DNA from: a virus
Taxonomy: Duplodnaviria > Caudoviricetes
Direction: 5' to 3' (one strand)
DNA: 64,000 bases
IMG/VR virus record: IMGVR_UViG_3300021431_000075
Coordinates: 256,001 to 320,000 of that record
Made by a program: the position numbers and the translations under genes. The notes below the pieces were generated by a model. The model did not search any database. It saw only the letters and a program-made list of their open reading frames with translations, and was not told the DNA's origin. Below, in pieces: positions 23,850-24,261 of the stretch; position 1 is the first letter of the stretch, and each line of letters opens with the position of its first letter.

Positions 23850-24261
23850 TGGAAAAACAAAAGCAACTGATTCTCTCGAACCAGTTGCTTTTGTTGTTTA
23901 GCATAGTGTTTTACGTCAGAGGATTTCACTAAACATAAAATTCCATACTAATGTGACGCTCCCAGTCCTAAAGGACATGGGCTTCGCGGTTCAACCTTCG
24001 ATGGTCTCGACAAAGAACATTGCATTCCATGAAGCCTTCACCAAAGTCCCCGCGCGTGAATTCGGACTCGTCCGGTCCTACTGCATAGAGAATTAAAAAC
24101 TCTCTATATTATATATCCGATTCACATAACGAACTTAAAAGTTTGCATCTTTCTTGGATAACATTTGGAAAACAAAGCAACTGATTCTCTCGAACCAGTT
24201 GTCTTTGTTGTTTAGCATAGTGTCTCACGCCAGAGAATCTCACTAAACCTAATATTCCATA
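23850..24261. repeat. Duplicated ~97-bp module with terminator (copies at 23850-23947 and 24166-24261)
   Basis: aagcaactgattctctcgaaccagttg...tagcatagtgt...tcactaaac...ttccata in both copies. Confidence 0.9.
23953..24085 (-). ncRNA. Orphan TnpB omega-RNA / IS200-IS605 right-end scaffold
   Basis: Minus strand GTAGGACCGGACGAGTCCGAATTCACGCGCGGGG...GAACCGCGAAGCCCATGTCCTTTAGGACTGGGAGCGTCAC: terminal hairpin, TCAC end and CGCGG/CCGCG pairing; no adjacent tnpB. Confidence 0.7.

Follow-up and report, generated by a model that had tools for sequence, protein, structure and literature searches.

Insertion sequences of the IS605/IS608 type that carry tnpA and tnpB, such as ISDra2 and ISGst, have a TTAC-type TAM and an omega-RNA that overlaps the 3' end of tnpB and the right end (RE) of the element, so that the right flank serves as the guide. 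In the TldR systems, TnpB-like proteins have become nuclease-dead repressors with adjacent guide RNAs, in which RuvC catalysis is lost and the guides are conserved against promoters. A further group of derivatives, the palindrome-associated transposable elements (PATEs), first described in Haloquadratum, consists of a left end (LE) and an RE of IS200/IS605 elements without any protein (PMC3119063). The PATEs of Geobacillus stearothermophilus often encode omega-RNAs, which are necessarily used in trans by the TnpB of other IS copies (PMC10055086), and TnpB genes have also been reported in phages, megaphages included (PMC12607003).

Here we analyse a locus in a 673,114-bp virus genome with direct terminal repeats. 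The window, i.e. the whole stretch of DNA analysed, has 64,000 nucleotides and corresponds to bases 256,001-320,000 of that genome; positions are those of the window unless preceded by "genome". The original prediction for this locus described an orphan TnpB omega-RNA forming its own transcription unit. In our analysis, positions 24166-23953 very probably hold a miniature, protein-less IS200/IS605 derivative of the PATE type. Like PATEs, it has an LE and an RE with subterminal hairpins and no ORF, derives from a co-resident element of the autonomous type, carries an omega-RNA scaffold, and has copies at several sites with differing flanks. It differs from them in being found in a 673-kb phage lineage instead of a cellular chromosome, in lying (for this copy) within a direct repeat of 100-114 nt with TTCC, and not TTAC, on its left, and in the resident tnpA being broken. 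The TTAC-type TAM of the family, the overlap of the omega-RNA with the tnpB 3' end and the RE, and the right flank as guide are shared with the IS605/IS608-type elements, and the parent element has the divergent tnpA/tnpB layout of IS605, whereas the mini copy has neither gene and the scaffold of this subfamily lacks an internal hairpin of ~30 nt that is kept by relatives. The resemblance to TldR systems is that an omega-RNA-like guide is decoupled from active transposition, but in the present case the cognate TnpB still has its nuclease residues and is encoded at a distance of 147 kb, and the guide is a flank that shows no conservation. PATEs carrying omega-RNAs have already been described (PMC10055086); what this case usefully adds are filled and empty alleles from a megaphage lineage, together with the unusual duplication of the flank.

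Organization of the locus

The features proposed for the locus, all on the minus strand, are the following:

23953-24166, minus strand: whole predicted mini-element (LE and RE, 214 nt, no ORF), from LE/RE homology to the full element, with bounds from sister copies and the empty allele

24081-24166, minus strand: left-end part, from BLAST to the parent LE, the alignment with L021-L024, and the same junction in L045, L093 and L068

23953-24080, minus strand: predicted TnpB omega-RNA scaffold of 128 nt, from identity to the parent, covariance model R1, the fold and covarying stems

23933-23952, minus strand: guide position, 20 nt that open both the right flank and module A, as homology to the parent and relatives ends at 23953

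23851-23952, minus strand: module A, hairpin and intrinsic terminator with TTCC at its end, from the repeat finder, BLAST and comparison with the empty allele

24167-24263, minus strand: module B, the predicted native 3' hairpin and terminator of the large RNA, from the repeat finder and BLAST, orthologous to the single module in L110-L113

24264-24765, minus strand: candidate large non-coding RNA upstream of the mini-element, with no ORF and 90% conserved in L110-L113

The box, the small hairpin, the scaffold ending in ...GGAGCGTCAC at 23953, and the stem with terminator that the original prediction had listed are all present on the minus strand as it described them. Judging from homology at both ends, the mini-element is an LE joined to an RE by an internal deletion, which would have taken tnpA and tnpB and which spared exactly the 128-nt omega-RNA scaffold. 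No tnpB is attached, as had been noted before, and no credible ORF is found under code 11, code 4 or TAG=Q, either in the mini-element or in the 1.2-kb tract around it (23740-24965); a gene hidden in this non-coding tract through TGA=W or TAG=Q was ruled out. The 673-kb genome has one mini copy and one full IS copy. Three independent assemblies are identical across the region, so that LE/RE homologies arising from assembly chimeras are unlikely.

In Rfam, the gathering threshold and permissive ones alike yielded nothing beyond noise, with no family for the scaffold or the large RNA, and the phage collection had no BLAST match to the region. In viral_contigs nothing was found for the RE 24-mer, the guide 19-mer, the gapped pattern of the mini-element or the TnpB protein, and one contig matches the 5' scaffold motif. 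A scan of genome_contigs with the scaffold motif gave only four MAG matches (Synergistaceae, Vicinamibacterales, Planctomycetota) and no lead to the host.

The right end and the omega-RNA scaffold

In a search of the phage's own genome, the scaffold (24080-23953) shows 90% identity over 128 nt to genome 132,973-132,847, which comprises the last tnpB codons of a full-length element and the sequence directly downstream. The homology between the orphan and this parent ends exactly at ...GGAGCGTCAC (23953), beyond which the two sequences are unrelated. Likewise, the right ends of TnpB homologues at 45-61% identity all close with this same run of ten bases, beyond which the DNA is unrelated, and the RE boundary and the guide position are therefore fixed.

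A covariance model, R1, was built from 21 full-length-type right ends (the parent and other metagenomic relatives), with the mini copies left out. The comparison with an omega-RNA covariance model, which had been suggested as a check, came out in favour of the scaffold: R1 scores the orphan at 81.3 bits (E about 9e-21) from end to end of the family model (positions 1-148), and this is its sole match in the window. Across the 21 relatives the RE ends in the invariant ...GGAGCGTCAC and its hairpin covaries; RNAalifold gives 24 pairs, 9 of them with compensatory changes, at a weak consensus energy. The fold of the 261-nt stretch lies well below that of its shuffles (z = -5.7), and scaffold stem 1 has C-A as its terminal pair. 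By homology, the invariant terminus and the model score, we identify 24080-23953 as a genuine predicted TnpB omega-RNA scaffold and not a chance look-alike. Because this omega-RNA module is without a tnpB of its own, any activity would have to depend on a TnpB acting in trans.

The left end and the putative promoter box

The 86 nt at 24166-24081, which had been overlooked in the original prediction, are homologous to the left end of the parent IS; BLAST matches 24157-24117 to genome 134,879-134,839 with 85% identity, and alignment reveals LE blocks that it has in common with L021-L024. This part holds the LE start, a subterminal hairpin (about 24145-24130) with one mismatched pair, a conserved TGAATCGG block and, in antisense, the last tnpA codons. 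Within it lies the AT-rich, TATAAT-like box GATATATAAT (24117-24108), and a junction hairpin occupies 24107-24085.

This box had been taken as the promoter of an independent unit, a reading that is not borne out: the box is LE-derived, fails a sigma-70 scan for want of a -35 hexamer, and shows no enrichment 5' of genes, while the neighbouring promoters are, by eye, of the Bacteroidota TTTG/TAnnTTTG type. We also considered GATATATAAT as a recurrent promoter box of the phage and rejected this, as its eight copies show no enrichment upstream of ORFs. All three mini copies preserve both the box and the 5' hairpin, and L093 has two copies of the box. The locus also carries a warning for annotation: with "orphan omega-RNAs", a search for a left end next to the scaffold should come before any call of domestication.

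The parent element and the TnpB-like proteins of the phage

The parent is an IS605 element, intact in its tnpA/tnpB layout and with a divergent Y1 tnpA, at genome 134,886-132,847, outside the window. Its TnpB, the cognate of the scaffold, is an open frame of 469 aa (genome 132,888-134,294) with a zinc ribbon and the RuvC D/E/D motifs. It keeps the D (..ALDLG..), the E (..QDEN..) and the DRD motif, the first two of which also align with the solved TnpB structure 8iaz.

The only Y1 tnpA of the genome (134,419-134,830, plus strand, locus L025) has an in-frame TGA at a conserved Trp (..LW.SGYF..), upstream of the catalytic Tyr; in L084 the homologous tnpA has TGG at the same codon. A TGA-recoded phage was considered and rejected, as ORF extensions past TGA are, genome-wide, no longer than those past TAA or TAG, and the in-frame TGA is probably a nonsense mutation. 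Since the only tnpA carries this TGA and the genome is not TGA-recoded, excision and the classic retention cycle may no longer operate in this phage.

There are six or seven TnpB-like frames in the genome in all. The two that the original prediction named as partners, at 27366 and 52602, do not fit that role, and the cognate gene lies 147 kb from the orphan scaffold. The protein at 27366-28847 (minus strand, 493 aa) shows no sequence match in Pfam, PHROG or PDB, and by BLASTP it resembles neither of the phage's TnpB clades; a relationship to the likewise 493-aa neighbour of the TnpB homologue in L023 was considered, and the two are unrelated. At 52602-53855 (plus strand) and genome 173,898-175,148 (minus strand) there are two 91%-identical copies of a 417-aa TnpB with OrfB_IS605 and Cas12f1-like TNB domains, a clade unrelated to the TnpB of the element studied here. 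Downstream of the 52602 copy the next ORF begins 37 nt past the stop, leaving little room for a downstream omega-RNA.

The duplicated module and the history of the insertion

The duplicated 3' module of the original prediction is real. The repeat finder gives a direct repeat of 23855-23947 against 24169-24261, with 88% identity over 93 nt, which BLAST extends to 114 nt at 86% (23836-23947 against 24150-24261). Module A has a strong intrinsic terminator with arms at 23898-23878 and 23873-23853, and module B has TTAC before it (24267-24264) and TTCC at its end, and abuts the LE. Upstream of the mini-element is the candidate large RNA (24264-24765, minus strand), ~500 nt and free of ORFs, which has a terminator of its own and a canonical TTTG-N19-TAnnTTTG promoter and occurs only once in the genome. 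Just upstream of its promoter, an AT-rich stretch at 24790-24813 (minus strand) matches genome 417,590-417,613 (plus strand) exactly over 24 nt, which may be a shared regulatory box.

An empty allele is provided by L110-L113, contigs from a relative in which the neighbouring 91-aa protein is 82% identical and the large RNA is 90% conserved, promoter included. It has the large RNA, a single module and TTCC, followed by the same downstream sequence as the window and no element. Compared with it, the window has 314 nt of extra DNA, made up of the 214-nt element and about 100 nt of a second module copy. The start of module B is like that of the orthologous single module, and the tail of module A is contiguous with the ancestral downstream DNA; since both match the empty allele, the module is the native 3' hairpin and terminator of the large RNA. 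The second copy is a by-product of insertion, and not a designed shared element, so that the processing or stability element proposed originally is instead the 3' end of the large RNA, copied during insertion.

With about 100 nt of flank duplicated in addition to the element itself, the insertion was no clean transposition. On the left, the junction falls precisely on the LE boundary, yet after TTCC, and the right junction is the canonical RE end. The left flank is thus TTCC here; it is TTCT in L093, and TTAC in the parent, L084, L068, L022 and L024. The element may first have been inserted at the TTAC at 24267-24264, and either a one-ended transfer of the LE or recombination between differently filled alleles could then have followed; homologous recombination within the module would have resolved the event, duplicating the module. 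A resemblance between the LE start and the sequence after module A was considered as a microhomology junction and rejected: the empty allele has this sequence too, directly after its single module, and it is therefore ancestral, not LE-derived.

Sister copies and spread of the element

A metagenome scan with the 5' scaffold motif gave 73 loci. Rumen and gut metagenomes are the source of the closest related contigs; in L018, which is more distantly related, the region has no homologue. The same mini-element, with the same deletion junction, AT-rich box and 5' hairpin, and with a variant internal hairpin, is present in L045/L093, which represent one site, and in L068. Both left and right flanks differ between these copies, and they match other places in this phage genome at 77-88% identity. 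Together with the empty locus in L110-L113, they are the scattered non-autonomous IS copies with random flanks that the original prediction had named as speaking against a dedicated guide RNA.

For the L093 insertion, genome 238,872 is the empty site, with TTAC directly before the target. The guide of the L093 copy (L093:3210-3459) has one mismatch to this site, at position 2, in the seed, and RNA-guided cutting between strains is conceivable there from the match of guide and target. In L084, a 96%-identical phage, the full-length IS is present at a different site. The IS605 family, in full-length and in miniature form, is polymorphic between strains of this rumen and gut megaphage lineage of ~670 kb, with both filled and empty sites known, which makes this allele set a natural system in which to ask whether a TnpB with a trans omega-RNA drives homing between the genomes of co-infecting phages.

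Among themselves the mini scaffolds share 95-98% identity, against 87-91% with those of the full-length copies; because they are closer to each other than to the full-length copies, the minis form one lineage, with a single origin followed by spread. In a sister subfamily, L086:2321-2600 (minus strand) is an independently formed LE+RE mini-element, with an LE block 112 nt upstream of a 158-nt scaffold and no ORF. As it arose independently, the formation of mini-elements recurs in this IS family.

Between this copy and that of L068, the scaffold has 5 differences in 128 nt and the LE part 13 in 86, i.e. the scaffold diverges ~3-4 times more slowly, without any coding constraint. This difference in substitutions is consistent with selection on the RNA, and the keeping of the scaffold in non-coding copies gives modest comparative support to an omega-RNA function in trans. 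It also bears on the possibility that the locus is an inert relic, the remains of an IS in decay, with neither transcription nor mobility, kept only as a neutral sequence. The lack of an intact TnpA in the genome, the degenerate TAM (TTCC), the mismatches in the LE hairpin and in scaffold stem 1, the absence of a recognisable promoter and the presence of only one mini copy in 673 kb would all suit such a relic. Yet the mini scaffolds are 95-98% identical although the phage backgrounds share only 77-88% identity with that of this phage, the scaffold is conserved more than the adjoining LE, the covariance model is matched over its full length, and the frame of the partner TnpB is intact, which leaves this explanation quite improbable.

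The guide and the proposed activity

Because homology to the relatives stops at the RE, the "guide" of this copy is, on sequence grounds, an insertion flank, here the start of the second module copy. The targets next to a TAM that had been expected for it were not found: with up to 3 mismatches over 16 nt, no match beside a TAM occurs anywhere in the genome, and viral_contigs has no match to the guide. In module B, which has TTAC in front, only the first 4 nt align with the guide and a 2-nt length difference shifts the rest out of register, so that the phage would not cut itself.

These results weigh on the idea of a domesticated trans-acting guide RNA, i.e. a gene in its own right, provided with promoter and terminator, that aims a TnpB- or TldR-like protein at a target in the host, a competitor or the phage's own genome, for defence, counter-defence or regulation. 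Part of the original prediction stands in this respect, since the omega-RNA is indeed without its own tnpB and the unit is bracketed by terminators on both sides, with module B upstream and module A downstream; what falls is the purpose-built gene, which gives way to an LE+RE mini-element. The idea would also be in keeping with the AT-rich box and 5' hairpin found in all three minis (the former duplicated in L093), with the stronger conservation of the scaffold relative to the LE, and with a broken tnpA beside an intact tnpB. Nevertheless, a related phage lacks the element at this locus, the sister copies have unrelated flanks at the guide position and thus no conserved spacer, and the guide itself has no match elsewhere in the genome or in viral_contigs, its nearest look-alike being the out-of-register module B. 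In addition, the catalytic residues of the cognate TnpB are kept, unlike in TldR, and a complete LE is retained. We therefore give domestication very little weight.

The preferred reading is that the locus is a PATE-type miniature of IS605 which has kept the 128-nt scaffold, takes its flank as guide, and is used in trans by the TnpB encoded at 133 kb of the genome for retention or homing, and as a whole we regard it as probable. For the activity itself, the trans use of the omega-RNA and homing of the mini-element, our analysis tips only slightly to the positive side. The element would be transcribed from a start inside the LE, or by read-through past module B, and the 469-aa TnpB encoded by the full-length copy would bind, and perhaps also trim, the resulting RNA of scaffold plus flank. 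The complex could then cut copies of the flank next to a TTAC-type TAM, that is, element-free alleles, whether left after excision or carried by co-infecting relatives, and repair off the element-bearing copy would restore or spread the element. From the combined analysis, and by analogy with what has been described of IS605 biology (PMC10055086), the mini-element is most likely an agent of selfish retention or homing, and not a regulatory or defence RNA designed by the phage.

A bolder form of the same mechanism, which we consider unlikely, is that the mini-element and the distant TnpB make up a homing or exclusion device between co-infecting megaphage strains, cutting the element-free alleles of rivals. 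If this were true, the rival allele would be converted or the rival genome destroyed, and the pair, its tnpA being dead, would survive as a weapon of phage against phage, no longer as a transposon.

Composition of the window

The G+C content of the window is about 58-64% at 32000-42000 and 34-42% beyond 46 kb (46000-64000), and a switch of strand near 42-45 kb falls together with this change.
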